A DNA stretch of 64,000 bases from Candidatus Thorarchaeota archaeon (GTDB lineage: Archaea > Asgardarchaeota > Thorarchaeia > Thorarchaeales > Thorarchaeaceae), in contig DXJO01000007.1 of assembly GCA_019057475.1 (NCBI GenBank), positions 1-64,000 on the forward strand, in the 5' to 3' direction. The notes under the pieces were generated by a model, which ran no database searches, was not told where the DNA came from, and saw nothing but the letters and a program-made list of their open reading frames with translations. This document shows, piece by piece, positions 30,977 to 43,561 of the stretch. Made by a program: the position numbers and the translations under genes. Position 1 is the stretch's first letter; every line of letters begins with the position of its first letter.

Positions 30977-31570
30977 ATGACTGAAATGCAGCCATCAGCG
31001 GCCGATGCTGATGATACAAGCACCGGATTCAAGTATAGAGTGGTATTGTTGGGAGAGGCTTCTGTAGGCAAGACTTCACTTCTCAGAAGGTTCGCTGAGA
31101 ATGTGTTCGATGAAGTATACAAACAGACCATAGGAACCACTTTTGCCTCCAAGGATGTTGCTGTCGTTGGCGAAGATGGTATGAAGCGCAATGTGCGTCT
31201 CGTGGTTTGGGACATGGCGGGTCAAGCAACATACCGCGAGTTGAGACGCCAGTTCATGAAAGGAGCATCCGCTGCAGTGATAGTGTACGACGTTACCAGG
31301 CCAGAAACTTTCATGAGTTGCAATAATTGGTTCGAGGCGTTTCGTGAAACATGCCCTGAAGCAGCAGTCATCGTCGCTGCGAATAAGATTGACTTGGAAG
31401 AAGAGAGGATTGTGCCAATAGAGCCCGGATGGATGTTACGGGACTGGTTCCAAGCCAATTACTATGAAACCTCTGCAAAGACCGGAGCCAAGGTTACTGA
31501 TGTCTTCACTAAAGTTGCTGAGATTGTTCTTAAGAGAGGCTTGGGTCAACGTAGTGACCTAGCCATGTGA
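30977..31570 (+). CDS. Ras-superfamily small GTPase (Rab-like)
   Basis: G1 GEASVGKTS, G2 YKQTIG, G3 WDMAGQ, G4 NKID, G5 ETSAK. Confidence 0.93.
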   Translation: MTEMQPSAADADDTSTGFKYRVVLLGEASVGKTSLLRRFAENVFDEVYKQTIGTTFASKDVAVVGEDGMKRNVRLVVWDMAGQATYRELRRQFMKGASAAVIVYDVTRPETFMSCNNWFEAFRETCPEAAVIVAANKIDLEEERIVPIEPGWMLRDWFQANYYETSAKTGAKVTDVFTKVAEIVLKRGLGQRSDLAM

Positions 31571-32898: not shown

Positions 32899-33498
32899 TT
32901 GAACTCTGAACCAGTTTCGCACATGTTTAAGCTAGTTGCCCTAGGGGACGGGGCAGTCGGCAAGACTAGTTGCATTAAAAGATACACAGAGGACAGCTTT
33001 AGCGAGCAGTACATCATGACGATTGGTACGACCTTCGCGCTCAAGACAGTTGAGGTCGATTCGCCCGAGGGACATAAGATTACAGCACGAGTTGTTTTAT
33101 GGGATCTGGCAGGACAGCCCACGTACAACGAACTGCGTCGCCGTTACATGGCCGGCGCGTCGATGGGCATAATTGTCTATGATGTCACTCGTCCTCAGAC
33201 ATTTCTGGATATCGGCGAGTGGTTCACGAAATTCATCACAGTCTGCCCCAATGCTGTTGTTGCTGTGGTTGCCAACAAAATTGACAGGTCGGATAGGCTT
33301 GTGCCACCTGAAGCAGGCGATATGGTGAAGGAGTGGCTGGATGTTCTGCACTATGAAACTTCAGCCAAGAGCGGGGAAAATGTAGACACACTATTCACTG
33401 AGCTGGTTCTTAGGGCGATTGAGAAACAGAAGAAGCTAGGTCCGATGGAGCCAGGATTCCATGGTTCATCTCAATCGAAACCCTTTAAGACGACGTAG
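32899..33498 (+). CDS. Ras-superfamily small GTPase (Rab-like), second copy
   Basis: GDGAVGKTS, YIMTIG, WDLAGQ, NKID, ETSAKSG.NV. Confidence 0.93.
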   Translation: MNSEPVSHMFKLVALGDGAVGKTSCIKRYTEDSFSEQYIMTIGTTFALKTVEVDSPEGHKITARVVLWDLAGQPTYNELRRRYMAGASMGIIVYDVTRPQTFLDIGEWFTKFITVCPNAVVAVVANKIDRSDRLVPPEAGDMVKEWLDVLHYETSAKSGENVDTLFTELVLRAIEKQKKLGPMEPGFHGSSQSKPFKTT

Positions 33499-35511: not shown

Positions 35512-36555
35512 TTAGGTGGTCATCCCGTCAACGTCCCTGATGCCATCCTTGCATACTCTGAAGATGGCTTCGCCTTCAGGCAAATTCGGTGAGTCTACCA
35601 GTCTGCAAATCCTACGTTCACCCTTGGACTTTCTTAGATAGCAACGTGTCTGAGGTACGTGAGCCAGAACATGCCCACCGACAGGTGTTGTTGGATCACC
35701 AAAGAAAGCGTCGGGACGCGACATCACCTGATTCGTGATATAGATAGCCATATTGGCGACCTCTGCACCCCGCTGTAGATGATGCAGGTGCTTGTTGAGC
35801 TTCTGCTGTCGTGCCGCTAGAGTACCGCGACCTGTGTATTCAGCTCTGAAGTGACTGGTCACTGAGTCAAGAACGAGAAGCTTGGCATTTAGCTCTGTGG
35901 CCATCTCCAGTGCTTGGTCACATAACAAAATCTGATGATCGGAATTGAACGCTCGTGCCCACACCACGTTCTTCAGAACTTTCTTGGGATCAAGACCCAC
36001 AGCCTCAGCCATGTCAACAAGACGCTCCGGACGGAAAGTACCCTCGGTATCCACATAGATCGCTGTTGCGCTCAAGCCTCCCTTGTCAGGAGGTAGTTGA
36101 ACATTGACAGCCAGCTGGTGAGCCATCTGTGTCTTCCCCGAACGGAACGAACCGTACATCTCGGTGATACTCTGGGTTTCAAGACCGCCGCCGAAGAGCT
36201 CGTCAAGAGCCTTAGAGCCAGTACTGATTCTACCAGCCGTTCTGCGCCGCTCTAGCATTAGGTCAGCTGTTTCGAAGCCGATATCCAACATCTCTCTTGC
36301 TGCCTTGACGATTTTCGTCGCAGTTGTTTCGCCGATTGAGCCGGCTGCTGCAAGCTCTCTCGGTGAAGCCACTGCAATCGCCTCAACACTCTTGTAACCT
36401 GACTCAGCTAGCCTTTTTCCAATTGCAGGTCCGACGCCTGGAAGATCGGTCACATCGAGACTGGCGTTAGCTTCTGCACTGGCCTCTAATGTAGAATCTT
36501 TCCCTTCATCAAACTCCTCGTAGTCAACATCATCCTTGTCCTTCTTTGCTGGAAT
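35512..36555 (-). CDS. radA: DNA repair and recombination protein RadA
   Basis: N-terminal HhH (DLPGVG), Walker [22 protein letters not shown], Walker B LLVLDS, FRAEY.GRGTLA.RQQ, GGHVLAH; start codon uncertain (see findings). Confidence 0.97.
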
Positions 36556-36781
36556 CCTAAAGACCTCCCTCAAGTGCTTGGTACGCTGAATTTCACCGAC
36601 GCAAAGCACGTGGCTAAGCTATGGTGGATTCATACAGTATAAAAATGGCACTAGTTGCGGCACCGAGTGAGTATGCGATGAAGACAGGATTCGACGAACC
36701 TAATCAAGCGAACCGTACAATGGGATTGGTCTGTCTTTAAGAGGCAGTGTGGTGCGTTTGTGAAACTGAGGTTCCGGTGAA

Positions 36782-37090
36782 TCAGAGCTTAGTCAGAGTA
36801 ACAAGAATAAACTCTTCTTGAGGAGCAATGCGAATTCCACCGAAGGTCGTTTGAACCTGGATGAAATGCAAATCACCGCCCTCATTGACCTGTCTGATGA
36901 TTTCTTTTGTCTTACCGATGAGGGCACTGAGCAGCGCCGATATCTCTTCAGCTCTTTCTAGACTTACGCCCCAGCTGTTTATCGGAAAGCCCTCTGGACT
37001 GATGAAGAGTGCGGCATAGACGTCCGGAAACTTGCTGGTAATATTCTGGATTATTCGTTCAAAGATCTCCCGCTTTGGCATTGCCGGCAT
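36782..37090 (-). CDS. Roadblock/LC7-domain protein
   Basis: A.FISPEGFPI.S.....E.ISAL.S.L......L..I.V.T..G.I.IAP...FILV. Confidence 0.85.
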   Translation of the reverse strand: MPAMPKREIFERIIQNITSKFPDVYAALFISPEGFPINSWGVSLERAEEISALLSALIGKTKEIIRQVNEGGDLHFIQVQTTFGGIRIAPQEEFILVTLTKL

Positions 37091-37437: not shown

Positions 37438-38787
37438 GTGTGTGCAATGGCTGAGTTTATAGAATGCCCAGAGTGTAGCAAGAGAATTCGCAAAGGATCA
37501 ACCTTCTGCTTGCATTGTGGAATCAGAATCGGAAAGGATATGAAATCTATGGGCAGTCCTATCGTCACGGAGAATGCGCCAAGCACTGAAACTGCTGGCG
37601 TGGAGGGTCTTGAGGACAAGATGGCAGACATGCTAGCACAATCTGGTTTGCCGACCACAGTGCACTCTACAGAGGCACCGACCAGCTCAGATGCAGAAGA
37701 AGACGTTCTTCCTGATATCGATGACTCTGTTCTTCCAGAACCTGAAGAGGTTACACGAACTGAAGAAGAATCCACACTCGAAGCAACATCGCTCCCACCA
37801 GATAATGAACTGAGCTGGGAAGTTGATAATCCAGCCCCGGTAGAGGGGATGCCTGTTGTGGCAGCCGATGAGCTACCAGCCGCTCCTACCGAACCCGAAT
37901 CAGCTCGAGAGGTTGAAGTGCGCGATTACGATCATGTAAGTGCTGAGATGAATTGGGACACAGCGTCCATACCTGAGTTCTCTTCAGATGAAGTCAAGGA
38001 GGGCATGCCATTCAAGGAAGTGGCGCCTCCAAGGATTGCTGCAGATGACATAGCCACTTCAACAGATGATGCACTGCGGCACCTATTCCCGGATGAAATT
38101 GATGCTAGCACAACAGAAGCTGTTACACACCTATTCCCCAGGGGACGTGGAGATGCATCGCGTGACTTCGTCGACGTTGTGGTAGGAAAACCCAAGAAGA
38201 TTACCATCACATCCAAAATGCACGAACTGAAGACACCATCCTGTCCGAATTGCGGAACCACAATCACAGGAGATGGTTATGAGTACCCGTCTTACGTTTA
38301 CGAAGCCATGGGGAAAGCAAGGCTTGGACAGGGAGTTCAGAAGCAGAAGGAGAATGAGCACGAAAATGCCATCGAATCGTTCGAGATGGCCAAGACGCTT
38401 TTTGAGAGGGCGGAGAATCCCAAGGCGATTTTCGAAGCCCAGAAGAGAATAGATGGCGGCTATGAAGCAATGGCGGCGTCACATCTCACGCAGGGCGAGA
38501 TGCACTTCAAGGCTGGCGAGTTTGAATGGGCTGCAGTTCAATTCAAGAAAGCACGTGAGATCTTCATGTTTACAACTCGAGCCAAAATGAGAGCCAAGTG
38601 TTCCGAGAGGATACGTGCATCCTACGGTGCTTGGGGGAAGGCCATTGAATCTGATGGTGATCGATTGTCCAAAGAGGGTCGGTCAAGAGAAGCACTCGCG
38701 AAGTACCAACTTGCTGCCAGGAAGTACAAGGAGGCTGACGCTCCCAAGAGACTCAGGAATCTCGACAAGAAAATTCGCAAGGCATAG
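37438..38787 (+). CDS. zinc ribbon, acidic disordered linker, second zinc knuckle and TPR/SNAP-like helical repeats
   Basis: CPEC...CLHCG; E/D/P-rich middle; CPNCG; repeats of the form G......E...A...F..A...F. Confidence 0.75.
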   Translation: MCAMAEFIECPECSKRIRKGSTFCLHCGIRIGKDMKSMGSPIVTENAPSTETAGVEGLEDKMADMLAQSGLPTTVHSTEAPTSSDAEEDVLPDIDDSVLPEPEEVTRTEEESTLEATSLPPDNELSWEVDNPAPVEGMPVVAADELPAAPTEPESAREVEVRDYDHVSAEMNWDTASIPEFSSDEVKEGMPFKEVAPPRIAADDIATSTDDALRHLFPDEIDASTTEAVTHLFPRGRGDASRDFVDVVVGKPKKITITSKMHELKTPSCPNCGTTITGDGYEYPSYVYEAMGKARLGQGVQKQKENEHENAIESFEMAKTLFERAENPKAIFEAQKRIDGGYEAMAASHLTQGEMHFKAGEFEWAAVQFKKAREIFMFTTRAKMRAKCSERIRASYGAWGKAIESDGDRLSKEGRSREALAKYQLAARKYKEADAPKRLRNLDKKIRKA

Positions 38788-39100: not shown

Positions 39101-41218
39101 TCAAATCCAATCTCCGGTTTCCAGCTTCGTAGGCAAGTACTCGTCAGTCAGATACTTGAATGAATGGCTAGCAAAGGCCTGTATCTCAGCTTTCTCCTTC
39201 AATTGCAGCATGAGCTTCAAGTCCCTGACCCAAGCTTTGTTCTTCTGGATAAAGGGCTCCTTGAGCATATCCTTTACTCGCTTGATGTCTGTTGGCTCCA
39301 TTGGTATCCGAACAGCCTTTGGAATATTGTACGCGTCAAGGTCTCTGCTCAGGACACCAAGCAGTTTCAGCTCGGGGGTGGCTATGAATGGTGACTCGTA
39401 ACTGAGCCTCTTGCTGCCACGGAGAAACACCGAGTAGATATAATGTCCGTACGGATCTGAGTCGACAAGGGCGAAAGCAGGAATCTCAAGCTCCTTCACA
39501 AGCGTCTTAAGGAATGCTCTTGTTGCGATGTCACCACTACCTTTTCCTGTAAGGACAATGCACGGTTGTCGGTTCCAGTACTTGGCTTCAGAAAGGCGCA
39601 TTACGGCAGCATCCTTCTCGGAAAGTAGGATGAATTCTGCATCGCTTTCGAGAATTTCTACCTGATCGAGGAATGGTGTGATTGCCCACCCACCTGTACC
39701 CATCTTCGTCAAATCAATAGTGTCGCCGCCATCTCTTATGACCACACGGCCCATGGCTGATCCTCGGGCTGAAGCAACAACATGGACACTGTCTCGAGTC
39801 GTACGAAGCATAGATGCGACATCCTCAATGATCTTATCGCTATACTTCTGTTCCCGAAACAGGTTAACGTCACTGTAGAATACCTCTCGTTTCGTTGCGT
39901 GTAGGTTGGCCTTGAGCAACTCGAATACTATCTCCATTACTCGAGCAGTACGTGTGGCATCTACGACGGAAGCCAATGAATGATAGGGACGCGTGATGGT
40001 CTTCATTCCGAGGAGGAGAAGGTCTCTAATCTCGTCCCAGATGATGTTGTCTGCGGATCTGCGAGGAATCTCAAAAGCAGGGCGACCTGTCATCATAGTT
40101 TCGTTGAGGACCTCCATAGCAACTTGGATTAGCTTGTCCTGTGTTTCATCGGTTGTCAGACCAACAACTTGGACTGTGTCCTCTGTTGTCAATTCGCCCT
40201 CTTTAGGTTCCGCCCCACCTGCGAGAGCCTCAGCTCTCTTCTCAGCTTCCCTCCACTTCCTCTTCATCTGCTTGGCAACATGAGTGACAGCCGCAGGGAC
40301 GGGAAGGCCTGATTTTTTCTTCTTCGCTTTCGTCCTTTGAAGCTTCTTTGGAATCTGCTTTGCATCTTCTTCCATTGGTTTCTTCTTGGTTGGTGCCTTC
40401 TTGGACGCAGCTTTCTTTTGTGGAGCCTTCTTTTTGGATTCCACTTTCTTGGCCGCAACTGCTGCCTCCGTAGGAACCTCCTCCTTGGGAGCCACGGGTC
40501 TCTCCACGGGCTTCGGTTCTACCTTGGGAATAGCCATACCAGTTATTGCCTGCATCTCCCTATCTTGAACAGCCTTCTTCGCCGCGACAATTATCATCTT
40601 CGCTCGATTAACGCTCAAGCCGCTCACAAGTCGGGCAACACTTTGCGGACGTGCTCGCGATAATCGGGACACAGAATTGTAACCTGAGCCCTCGAGCTTG
40701 CGTACCATTTTTGCACCCACCCCTGGCAGAGAAGCAAGAGGAATCTCAGCGGGGCCTCGTGTGATTTCCACTGCTGCAGCATCCTCAGGCTCAATGTCCG
40801 CTACAGGCTTCGATTTGGTACTCTTCTCAGGCACCTTAAGAGATTCCTTTGCAGCCCGCACCAAGTTCTTCGCACCCGTCTTACTTAATCCGTTCACTTT
40901 CTTCGCAACGCTTTTCGATCTGGCTTTTGAAAGCTTGAGAACAGAGTCATATCCTGCAGCTACAAGTCGGTTTCTAAGCTTGGACCCAACACCTGGAAGT
41001 GAAGCCAGTGGTGGACCTGTTACAACTTGCGGCTCTTTCTTGACAGAGGGCTTTGCCTTAACCTTCTTAGCAAGTGCCTTCCTCTTGGTTGTCTTTGCTG
41101 AGGATTTCTTCTTGGTAGTCTTCTTCTTGCTAGTGGTTTTCTTGGAAGGCTTTTTTACAAGCTCACCCAATGTAGATTGGATGGTTTCCTTTTTTCTAGT
41201 CTTCTTTCTTGGACTCAT
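39101..41218 (-). CDS. top6A: DNA topoisomerase VI subunit A with a long N-terminal Lys-rich/HhH extension
   Basis: TKREVFY (catalytic Tyr), Toprim SEKDA, TGKG, DSDPYG..I, KAEIQA in the C-terminal ~355 aa. Confidence 0.93.
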   Translation of the reverse strand: MSPRKKTRKKETIQSTLGELVKKPSKKTTSKKKTTKKKSSAKTTKRKALAKKVKAKPSVKKEPQVVTGPPLASLPGVGSKLRNRLVAAGYDSVLKLSKARSKSVAKKVNGLSKTGAKNLVRAAKESLKVPEKSTKSKPVADIEPEDAAAVEITRGPAEIPLASLPGVGAKMVRKLEGSGYNSVSRLSRARPQSVARLVSGLSVNRAKMIIVAAKKAVQDREMQAITGMAIPKVEPKPVERPVAPKEEVPTEAAVAAKKVESKKKAPQKKAASKKAPTKKKPMEEDAKQIPKKLQRTKAKKKKSGLPVPAAVTHVAKQMKRKWREAEKRAEALAGGAEPKEGELTTEDTVQVVGLTTDETQDKLIQVAMEVLNETMMTGRPAFEIPRRSADNIIWDEIRDLLLLGMKTITRPYHSLASVVDATRTARVMEIVFELLKANLHATKREVFYSDVNLFREQKYSDKIIEDVASMLRTTRDSVHVVASARGSAMGRVVIRDGGDTIDLTKMGTGGWAITPFLDQVEILESDAEFILLSEKDAAVMRLSEAKYWNRQPCIVLTGKGSGDIATRAFLKTLVKELEIPAFALVDSDPYGHYIYSVFLRGSKRLSYESPFIATPELKLLGVLSRDLDAYNIPKAVRIPMEPTDIKRVKDMLKEPFIQKNKAWVRDLKLMLQLKEKAEIQAFASHSFKYLTDEYLPTKLETGDWI

Positions 41219-43284
41219 TCTGTACCGCCCTCCATTGAAGCCTCAGCGGGTTCACCTTCGCCAAGAGATACGTCTGCAACAAGATCGGTTCCTTTTGCGT
41301 CTGTCTCGGTTTCCTCAGCGTCGACTTGTGTTTCAAATCCAGTTATGGAATCCCTCATTTTTCTGGCGAGTACCTCAGCATTGAACTTGGGCTTCTTGTG
41401 ACCATCATTGACTATGTTGGCTAGACTTTGAGCGAACTGGTCTGCGTACATAGCAAGGATTCCCGCTCGCTTTGCTTTTCGACGGGCAGTTTCACGCCTT
41501 GTGATGAACCTCTTGAACTTCCGACCTGCATCTTCAAGGGCAAGTTTGATCTCTCGTAGAAGAACCTCATCCTCTGCTAGAGCCTGCTTACTCTGACCCT
41601 TGAACATCACATGCACATATGCACCAGCCACATGAATGAAGACCATTATTTGACCGCGAGGAATGCCATTATCGAATGTGGCAACCTTGTAGTTCTTCCA
41701 ATTGACCGATGCTGTGCTTTTCCACGTCGCGCAGTCACTATTGTCCCTAAGCTTGGGCACGCGATTCACAAACCGCCAAAGCGCCATTGGGGCTGAAGTG
41801 GCAGTCCTCAGCTCCCCACCATACGCGATACAGACTTCCACTGCGAAGGAAAGGCCCTTACCTGAGGTGGGTTTGCGTGTCACAGCAGTGACGAACTCAG
41901 GACGGTAAGCTAAATCAATTGTTTGCTCGAAGACCTCAGCTCCGACTGGTACAACTGTATCCGTCGGAGGAGAGATGTAATCCTGACTTGAGAATGACTT
42001 GTACAGTAGCTCCACTTCTGTCTTGGACAGAGAATCAGCAGGCGTCTTCATGCTCAGAGTATCAAGGTGACGGCGCCGTAGTTCCTTATTCGCGCCTTGA
42101 ATGATAGTTCGGGCCTTGTTTATGCTTAGTCTAACAAACGCCCGCGTGAGGAAGCGCCCTAGGTCGTTCTCCTGGGTTTCCCGCAGAAGGTCCTGAAATT
42201 CTCCAATCCGTATACTTGCAGGATGAGGCTGAGCATACTTGGGCTCATCTGGGAAACTCCTCACACGCCGTGGATGGATATGAACAGCGCCGTATGGATC
42301 AATAAACACAAGTGTTGCGTGCGCGTTGAGAAGAGAAGCCATCTCTGTGTAGATGTCAGCGTAACCCCGTCTATACTGGATATTTAGGTAGTAGAGTTTG
42401 ATGAATGTACCGTGCTCAAATGGAAGGTCCATATCAATGGGACCACTGACGTAATCCTTTGTATTAGCTGTCGTCGTATAGAAGTCAGTTACAGTCGCTT
42501 TATCCGAGGTGAACCGCTTGGAAACGGTGAAGATTGGTTTTCCAGTCGTATTCTGCGAATCACTGAATGCAGATGGTGCACCGAAGCCCTGACTTCCTCT
42601 GGTTTGCTTCAATTTCTCCGATTTGCTTGATGCCAGATAGATACCATACTTCTCGAGGTCTGACGGAACCATACCCACACCATTGTCGAAGCAGATGAAT
42701 TCGTAAACCTTGAAACCCTCCTCGTCATCGAGTGGTATAAGGTCAGGCATTTGAACTTCCGTGAGCTGCATCACGACTAGGGGTTCACGTTTCTTGATCA
42801 AACTCCTGAATGGAACCAAGAACTTCCTAAACCTCGTGAGCTGCTCATCAAGCGTTTCTTTTCGGCGGAGGGGGATATCTATTTCCTTACCAGCGCGAAC
42901 ATCCTTTTCTAGCCGTTTGCTGAGAGCAATCGAGTCATGCAGGGTCCCCTCAAGCTTGTCCCGAATCTCCTGAATAATCTCCGGGTCCAGTGCATCTTTG
43001 AGCCGTGGTCTTTTATCTGTCTTCCACCACCAGCTCTCCAACGCGTCGATAGCATTGTCCAGGAACTCTATGCTAAACTGGGTGTGTTTGTTGAGTCCCG
43101 TTTCGAAGCCTACCAACTGAGTTCTCTTTCGCATGAACTTGGCAATCGTGCCTTGGCGAATGTCGCCTGTGTCGTCCATAATGGGGACATCTACTGTCGT
43201 CTTCTTGCCACTACTTGACTTACCAGCGCTACGCTTCTTTTTCTTGCCAGACTTGGTGCGTCCAGTCTTCTTCGAAGGACTCAT
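41215..43284 (-). CDS. top6B: DNA topoisomerase VI subunit B
   Basis: GHKL motifs EFLDNAIDA, DNGVGM, QTRGSQGFG, HGT; PHP; RFVNRVP; K..SKQA; overlaps the top6A start. Confidence 0.93.
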   Translation of the reverse strand: MSPSKKTGRTKSGKKKKRSAGKSSSGKKTTVDVPIMDDTGDIRQGTIAKFMRKRTQLVGFETGLNKHTQFSIEFLDNAIDALESWWWKTDKRPRLKDALDPEIIQEIRDKLEGTLHDSIALSKRLEKDVRAGKEIDIPLRRKETLDEQLTRFRKFLVPFRSLIKKREPLVVMQLTEVQMPDLIPLDDEEGFKVYEFICFDNGVGMVPSDLEKYGIYLASSKSEKLKQTRGSQGFGAPSAFSDSQNTTGKPIFTVSKRFTSDKATVTDFYTTTANTKDYVSGPIDMDLPFEHGTFIKLYYLNIQYRRGYADIYTEMASLLNAHATLVFIDPYGAVHIHPRRVRSFPDEPKYAQPHPASIRIGEFQDLLRETQENDLGRFLTRAFVRLSINKARTIIQGANKELRRRHLDTLSMKTPADSLSKTEVELLYKSFSSQDYISPPTDTVVPVGAEVFEQTIDLAYRPEFVTAVTRKPTSGKGLSFAVEVCIAYGGELRTATSAPMALWRFVNRVPKLRDNSDCATWKSTASVNWKNYKVATFDNGIPRGQIMVFIHVAGAYVHVMFKGQSKQALAEDEVLLREIKLALEDAGRKFKRFITRRETARRKAKRAGILAMYADQFAQSLANIVNDGHKKPKFNAEVLARKMRDSITGFETQVDAEETETDAKGTDLVADVSLGEGEPAEASMEGGTE

Positions 43285-43561
43285 TCTAATCACTCCGTAG
43301 GCTTCATTGGTTCAAGCCCTAAGATCTACATTATTTCGTGGATAGGAAAACGAGCGTCTTCCCCACATAAAGCAGTTCTCTGCTTCTAGTAATCGTGGAA
43401 TCTCCATTATGCCTATTAGGCTTTTGCCGGTATACATGCTTGTAGAAGCATTCTGGTCCTTCTGGAGCACTCCTCCGATAGAGTGGGTTTCTTCCAGAGA
43501 AGTGAACAACAAACAGAGGATTTTTCCGTGTTACAGATACCGGGGGGGCCGAGATGAAGCA

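Follow-up and report, generated by a model that had tools for sequence, protein, structure and literature searches.

Archaeal topoisomerase VI (topo VI) is represented by solved structures of its A subunit, Top6A, from S. shibatae (2zbk_A), M. mazei (2q2e_A), and M. jannaschii (1d3y). Here we describe a Top6A from a Candidatus Thorarchaeota archaeon of the family Thorarchaeaceae, encoded within positions 1 to 64,000 of contig DXJO01000007.1 (assembly GCA_019057475.1); this whole stretch of 64,000 nucleotides is referred to as the window. The protein shares with the solved enzymes the core, the Tyr, the Glu, the DxD motif, and the top6B-top6A operon. Unlike them, it adds an N-terminal arm of ~300 amino acids (aa) with a PCNA-interacting-peptide (PIP)-like motif, Lys-rich tracts, and, across the family, 2-7 tandem helix-hairpin-helix modules, abbreviated (HhH)2. 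Modelling and analogy lead us to consider it probable that this is the main topo VI in a clamp- and DNA-tethered form, the arm having been gained on the Thorarchaeaceae stem.

Two topoisomerases with added DNA-binding elements offer the nearest parallels. Topo V of Methanopyrus kandleri is a type IC enzyme with 12 tandem (HhH)2 domains (PMC2647321). Like the Top6A described here, it joins a topoisomerase core to (HhH)2 domains, and the modules of the two are weakly similar (E 6e-4 to 1e-3), but its catalytic fold and class are unrelated and its array is C-terminal and includes apurinic/apyrimidinic (AP) lyase activity, whereas the Top6A array is N-terminal, has long linkers, and varies in copy number. 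The Lys repeats of Streptomyces TopA are described as stabilising the DNA complex and conferring processivity (PMC5714199). Actinobacterial TopA resembles the Top6A in carrying Lys-rich low-complexity tracts, by analogy only; it is a type IA enzyme with a C-terminal tract, and the abstract of PMC5714199 mentions neither HhH modules nor a clamp motif.

The elements of the arm also have relatives outside topoisomerases. Archaeal PIP proteins (Fen1, PolB, PolD, RFC, RNase H2, NucS, and NreA; PMC4929162) resemble the Top6A in presenting a terminal, disordered Q-x-T-L after basic residues, and the Top6A motif is predicted to occupy the same PCNA pocket. The PIP consensus, QXXhXXaa, has two aromatics (PMC4929162), unlike the Top6A motif, which has Leu, Val, or Ile in place of the aromatic pair. 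For topo VI, this review mentions only that its subunits and PCNA co-purified in a NucS pull-down. The modules belong to the (HhH)2 fold family (Pfam HHH_5) that includes the RadA/Rad51 N-domain, NusA AR1/AR2, and the N-terminal HhH of haloarchaeal L32e. They differ from the RadA N-domain (RadA-N) in being one residue longer before the second hairpin and in having no FxxA motif, and they are closest to modules on eL32, eS25, Rpo6, and HEAT-repeat proteins of the Thorarchaeaceae. The Thorarchaeota Rpo6 extension has been seen before and termed a helix-loop-helix fragment (PMC13257274).

The arm on topo VI is apparently undescribed and lineage-restricted. The literature searched, which left most subscription papers outside its scope, yielded no description of such an arm and no report of a PIP motif in topo VI. 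Searched by term, the main text of PMC12680538 (no HhH; supplements outside scope) and PMC11302465, PMC8185306, and PMC11894792 do not mention the arm.

The topoisomerase VI genes

The following features define the gene pair and the catalytic part of the protein:

39101..41218, minus strand: top6A, a conserved Asgard-type copy of 705 aa with an N-terminal arm (open reading frame (ORF) list, profile matches, core tree)
39104..40153, minus strand: catalytic core, with a winged-helix domain (Tyr448 at 39875-39877) and a Toprim domain (Glu534, Asp586/Asp588)
41215..43293, minus strand: top6B, the partner gene, whose stop codon overlaps the top6A ATG (translational coupling)

The 705-aa protein is a bona fide Top6A with its winged-helix and Toprim residues intact, in agreement with an earlier reading made from the sequence only, which had described an intact catalytic part. 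Pfam places TP6A_N at aa 422-480 (E 6e-19) and the Toprim domain at aa 529-699 (PF21180, E 2e-53). Tyr448 falls at the aligned position of the catalytic Tyr in the solved Top6A structures, and Tyr448, Glu534, Asp586, and Asp588 are invariant among 71 Top6A homologues. Across five genomes of the genus, the set used for all such ratios below, the ratio of non-synonymous to synonymous substitution rates (dN/dS) of the core is 0.046. Profile matches indicate that the adjoining, overlapping gene encodes the cognate Top6B with GHKL and transducer domains (328.6 bits against an NF003218 cut-off of 274; transducer E 8.5e-41). From the genes, the protein pair is predicted to be an ordinary A2B2 type IIB enzyme with ATP-dependent relaxation and decatenation activity.

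The 692-aa Top6B begins with a Lys-rich tail, ends with an acidic one, and seems to have ~100 aa inserted after its N-box; in other Asgard families, Top6B frames extend to 990-1,190 aa. A PIP-like stretch near the start of Top6B, which we take to be the GHKL N-terminal strap, was dismissed, as Asgard Top6B proteins conserve it whether or not the arm is present. In other Asgards, open frames of 1,000-1,590 aa had suggested Top6B-Top6A fusions but proved to be in-frame neighbours with a stop codon between them. A promoter and terminator scan gave counts below those of shuffles.

The long form of the protein is probably genuine. The top6B stop and the top6A ATG overlap as ATGA with GGAGG upstream, and a start at or beside the top6B stop recurs in top6A across the Thorarchaeaceae. 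An internal start near the catalytic domain is unlikely because of this overlap, the upstream GGAGG, and the low dN/dS of the two modules (0.11 and 0.18), so that translation presumably begins at Met1. An assembly artefact is excluded by the presence of modules in 120/120 best homologues and in all 35 inspected genomes of the family.

Architecture of the arm

Downstream of a short N-terminal segment with the PIP-like motif, the arm consists of the following elements:

41033..41155, minus strand: first Lys-rich disordered tract, aa 22-62 (Lys content; predicted local distance difference test (pLDDT) <50)
40844..41008, minus strand: (HhH)2 module 1, aa 71-125, net charge +11 (HHH_5; pLDDT 79-88; dN/dS 0.11)
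40574..40738, minus strand: (HhH)2 module 2, aa 161-215, net charge +10 (HHH_5; pLDDT 85-90; dN/dS 0.18)
40313..40450, minus strand: second Lys-rich disordered tract, aa 257-302
40220..40294, minus strand: conserved helix, aa 309-333 (conservation, model; dN/dS 0.19 for aa 301-345)

The arm is strongly basic, with a net charge of +59 over aa 1-345 and 34% Lys in aa 1-68. The Lys-rich tracts that the sequence-only reading had placed in the N-terminal half are indeed there (aa 22-40 and 262-280), and its two HhH copies at aa ~71-124 and ~161-214 correspond to the two HHH_5 stretches found by Pfam at aa 71-124 and 161-215. In the AlphaFold model both modules are folded (pLDDT about 80-90) and the linkers are disordered; the first hairpin G-V-G is conserved in the modules, and the fold is confident. 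Linker dN/dS is 0.63-0.76: the modules are under purifying selection and the linkers under relaxed selection. Judged by eye, the helix at aa 309-333 is probably the counterpart of the short basic helix at the N-terminus of other Asgard Top6A proteins. The full-length model has a poor core (predicted template modelling score 0.26, from a low-diversity alignment) and is uninformative on arm-core contacts.

The N-terminal motif and PCNA

The tip of the arm carries a further short element:

41156..41185, minus strand: degenerate PIP-box-like motif, aa 12-21 (Q14-x-T16-L17), with aliphatic residues for the aromatic pair

Q14, T16, and L17 are nearly invariant within a fast-evolving Lys tail, in a segment with pLDDT <50 (aa 1-23). 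Q-x-[TS]-L occurs in 111/120 homologues, compared with 1.8% of shuffled tails. As 8 of the 9 exceptions appear to be N-terminally truncated, the motif is present in 111 of the 112 N-terminally complete homologues, always within the first 30 residues; it is absent from every armless Top6A examined. Two canonical PIP boxes of the same genome share it as their first half; one lies at the C-terminus of a Fen1-like ORF and the other at the N-terminus of a PolB-like ORF, both ORFs being recognised by eye. With Q at position 1, a hydrophobic residue at position 4, and a terminal disordered setting, the motif reads as a degenerate rather than a canonical PIP box.

The window's genome has one PCNA, encoded at C18:19470-20222. 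A complex prediction of this PCNA with aa 1-34 of Top6A scored 0.75, a mark that is reached by 58/80 solved complexes and by 2/110 mismatched pairs, against 0.00 for the best control. The runs share at least 85% of contacts with a partner pLDDT of at least 58, and PCNA residues 40-47, 123-128, and 244-250, which form the canonical PIP pocket, are predicted to contact peptide aa 10-21. The arm tip is thus predicted to dock on PCNA, in the sense of a likeness to known complexes rather than of binding. PIP-PCNA complexes are solved textbook pairs, and the prediction may for that reason echo known structures. As a separate observation, several genomes of genus g8 (L218, L222, L230, and L237) carry two PCNA genes side by side, a possible influence on how specific a degenerate PIP motif is.

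Distribution across Asgard archaea

The arm is found throughout one family. Thorarchaeaceae Top6A has 2, 4, 5, or 7 modules in the 35/35 genomes whose locus was inspected, and the 120 best homologues all have 2-4, with exactly 3 in two database homologues. Some copies are near-identical recent duplicates. General gene conversion between modules within genomes was rejected, as its mark appears only in G233 (own-genome mean 51% versus 38-44% in others). Named homologues are mostly from Thorarchaeota and are labelled 'helix-hairpin-helix domain-containing protein' or 'SPO11'. The module was not found on any of 29 Top6A proteins from 19 other Asgard families, including the sister-family genome G108; these proteins are ~390-510 aa long and have neither arm nor motif. 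The survey upholds the architecture as real and, over the Asgard families covered, indicates that it is not widespread. When 1.84 billion representatives were searched with the module, only two of the best 150 matches had a Top6A core, and both were Thorarchaeaceae-type proteins. Long Top6A proteins were also sought with the divergent paralogue as query; the 20 proteins returned carry inteins and none has HhH modules, which is weak evidence because known Thorarchaeaceae proteins were missed as well.

In the catalytic-core tree, which contained no eukaryotic sequences, all arm-bearing Top6A proteins fall on one branch (99/99) inside the Thorarchaeales with G108 as sister. This branch is nested among the short conserved Asgard copies, and the two other Top6A paralogues of the window's genome form long outlying branches. 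The window's Top6A has a 3-residue Toprim insertion relative to 1d3y and 2q2e. The tree places this Top6A with the single-copy conserved Asgard clade, apart from the divergent extra copies, and shows a single gain of the arm, on the Thorarchaeaceae stem. The main text of PMC12680538 places conserved Asgard Top6A as sister to eukaryotic Top6A/Spo11 and reports a third copy in Thorarchaeia. The earlier suggestion that the fusion bears on the origin of Spo11 did not hold up: as a later gain, confined to one branch and absent from 19 other families, the arm is silent on that origin, though the core belongs to the Spo11-related lineage.

Other N-terminal additions were encountered in the survey. 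Top6A proteins of seven other Asgard families have an extra N-terminal domain of ~80-100 aa (L242:2605-2889, minus strand; L243-L245; L250-L252), which in L242 scores above Pfam thresholds for both ubiquitin (E 1.6e-7) and Rad60-SLD (E 3.8e-8) and in the others has a weak match or none. A 453-aa Top6A frame of family f18 (L206, genome G025) has a basic N-terminal tail with a PIP-like ESSLDRYL, possibly an independent clamp motif.

Function of the arm and its alternatives

On the reading that we favour, a flexible arm of ~300 aa would have been added to the A subunit on the Thorarchaeaceae stem. The low-affinity PIP-like motif at its tip would dock on the PCNA clamp, and the Lys tracts and 2-7 (HhH)2 modules would grip DNA without sequence specificity, as fold, charge, and analogy suggest. 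The two-armed tetramer would be held on DNA near replication or repair forks, with a longer residence time and greater processivity in removing precatenanes and supercoils. The sequence-only reading had likewise proposed extra DNA-binding or tethering modules, together with a possible link to RadA. The first part stands as plausible, with folded modules under purifying selection that carry charges of +10 to +11 amid Lys tracts; the RadA link does not.

Several observations weigh against tethering to clamp and DNA. In the window's lineage the second hairpin is G-L-S and not G-h-G, which is found in deep-branching genera. Top6A modules have net charges between -4 and +11, with values close to neutral in those genera. 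The closest compact structural match of the module is NusA AR2, a protein-binding module (root-mean-square deviation 1.3 Å over 56 columns; RadA-N and SAM tandems also matched). The module also sits on membrane proteins and acidic HEAT proteins, where DNA binding is not an obvious role. Finally, the aromatics at positions 7/8 of the motif are missing, these positions being mostly L/V and then V/L/I, so that binding may be weak or to another partner.

The module is a promiscuous domain that the Thorarchaeaceae have attached to eL32, Rpo6, eS25, HEAT-repeat, and membrane proteins. It is present on Rpo6 in 15/15 complete Thorarchaeaceae genes and on eL32 in 12/16 genomes; several genera have it on eS25, and it also occurs on two HEAT-repeat proteins and on a protein of 2,416 aa. 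On Rpo6 and eL32 it was not found in G108 or in the scanned loci of other families. In the window's genome (G000), module-bearing genes lie at C42:20453-21259 (L031), C47:51191-51868 (L033), and C29:21572-23326 (L032), with relatives at L179-L194. The eL32 fusions of the Thorarchaeaceae have 1-4 module copies, and fusions often come with Lys tracts; a fusion of the module to a membrane protein resembling the major facilitator superfamily (MFS) also occurs in the sister family G108.

The (HhH)2 modules might accordingly be protein-protein docking units, like NusA AR1/AR2, the RNA polymerase alpha C-terminal domain, and SAM domains, and the shared modules would then bring topo VI together with RNA polymerase and ribosomes, or gather them on a common scaffold. 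We regard this as unlikely, though it has several points in its favour. The same module class and length signature recur on Rpo6, eL32, and eS25; many module copies are neutral or acidic; the fold matches that of NusA AR2 and SAM tandems; and the copy numbers of Top6A and eL32 rise together in some genomes (4/4 and 7/3 versus 2/1). Set against these, the window's Top6A modules are strongly basic (+10 and +11) and embedded in Lys tracts, and the modules of Rpo6 and eL32 likewise sit near nucleic acid, so that nucleic-acid binding would explain most hosts. A combined scheme, in which a PCNA-riding type IIB topoisomerase also shares a family-specific docking code with Rpo6, eL32, and eS25, is a long shot. 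Its PCNA-tether part, taken alone, has a somewhat better than even chance; the shared docking network is much less likely than that part.

The arm might also bind DNA through its HhH and Lys elements and raise processivity while the Q-x-T-L motif serves not as a PCNA site but as a contact for Top6B or another factor. The missing aromatic pair speaks for such a role, as does the chance that the predicted PCNA complex echoes memorised PIP structures. We nevertheless find it distinctly improbable, since Q14 and L17 are invariant in an otherwise variable tail, the genome's own PIP boxes open with the same residues, and unrelated-peptide controls score 0.00.

It is very doubtful that the modules mimic the RadA N-domain, coupling topo VI to RadA filaments in a foreshadowing of Spo11-initiated recombination. 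The gene in question is the following:

35512..36609, minus strand: radA, a loosely syntenic neighbour outside the arm mechanism

Both modules match the RadA models NF003301 and TIGR02236, and the resemblance to the RadA N-domain that had been noted by eye is for that reason real at the level of fold. Also as noted earlier, radA lies ~2.5 kb away (2,495 bp). It is within 10 kb of top6A and on the same strand in 48 of the 53 genomes that have both genes on one contig. However, a gene on the opposite strand intervenes, which places radA outside the top6A operon, and the linkage is tightest in the armless G108 and lost in some genomes with the arm, where the two genes lie 37 kb or about 500 kb from each other.

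The modules themselves point the same way. Within the window's genome, a Top6A-module profile scores eL32, the MFS-like membrane protein, and Rpo6 above RadA. The mean identity of 83 Top6A modules is 39.1% to eL32, 38.2% to eS25, 37.4% to HEAT-a, 35.4% to Rpo6, and 34.5% to RadA-N, and the best match outside Top6A is eL32 for 60/83 modules and RadA for 1/83. A one-residue deletion before the second hairpin marks 24/24 RadA N-domains and 3/83 Top6A modules, and an FxxA motif follows the domain in all 24 RadA proteins and in 2/83 Top6A modules. In a module tree of 64 columns, the RadA N-domains form their own clade (100/100), the rest of the backbone being without resolution. On identity, indel, FxxA, and synteny, both an origin of the module from RadA and RadA mimicry were rejected; the arm is also absent from all 19 other Asgard families tested. 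The physical topoisomerase-recombinase link that had been proposed is not borne out, and the comparison does not support the modules as RadA-derived or as a RadA-binding device.

That the arm is near-neutral accretion of a mobile module is scarcely credible: the module is promiscuous, its copy number labile, and the linker dN/dS high, yet the arm is kept in 35/35 genomes, module dN/dS is 0.11-0.18, and the N-terminal motif is near-invariant.

Other topoisomerase VI copies and neighbouring genes

A tethered topo VI would operate beside other copies of the enzyme. A recent review regards the question of how Sulfolobus topoisomerases divide their work in vivo as unanswered (PMC11894792). No gyrase B was found in the window's genome (96% complete), and its other Top6A/B copies are divergent; a division of labour is therefore plausible, with the window's topo VI as the fork-tethered copy.

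The genome has a second topo VI A/B pair (C21:163392-165984), a divergent, apparently N-terminally shortened Top6A-like frame with 303 codons (C12:6569-7477), and a third Top6B without an adjacent Top6A, next to an integrase-like ORF (C47:22363-23964). The Top6A relatives of the C21 paralogue (P0271-P0290) have inteins, many with a LAGLIDADG domain, and some are labelled Bathyarchaeia.

Between top6A and radA lie a roadblock/LC7 protein (36782-37090, minus strand) and a protein with a zinc ribbon, an acidic linker, and tetratricopeptide repeats (37438-38787, plus strand). Farther along, two genes for Rab-like small GTPases, recognised by eye (30977-31570 and 32899-33498, plus strand), flank a CBS-domain-like gene and a Pro/Ala-rich coiled-coil gene.

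Implications

The arm is a family-level innovation that has stood in databases as a 'helix-hairpin-helix domain-containing protein', and it does not speak to RadA coupling or to the origin of Spo11. The subunit suggests a mechanism, open to direct testing, by which archaeal topo VI might be targeted to forks or catenanes: one of several copies of the enzyme carries a conserved peptide that resembles a clamp-docking motif, together with a putative DNA-binding arm. One Asgard family has put the same small domain on a topoisomerase, on RNA polymerase, and on the ribosome; if these proteins do share a docking code, the control of DNA topology would be physically coupled to replication, transcription, and translation.

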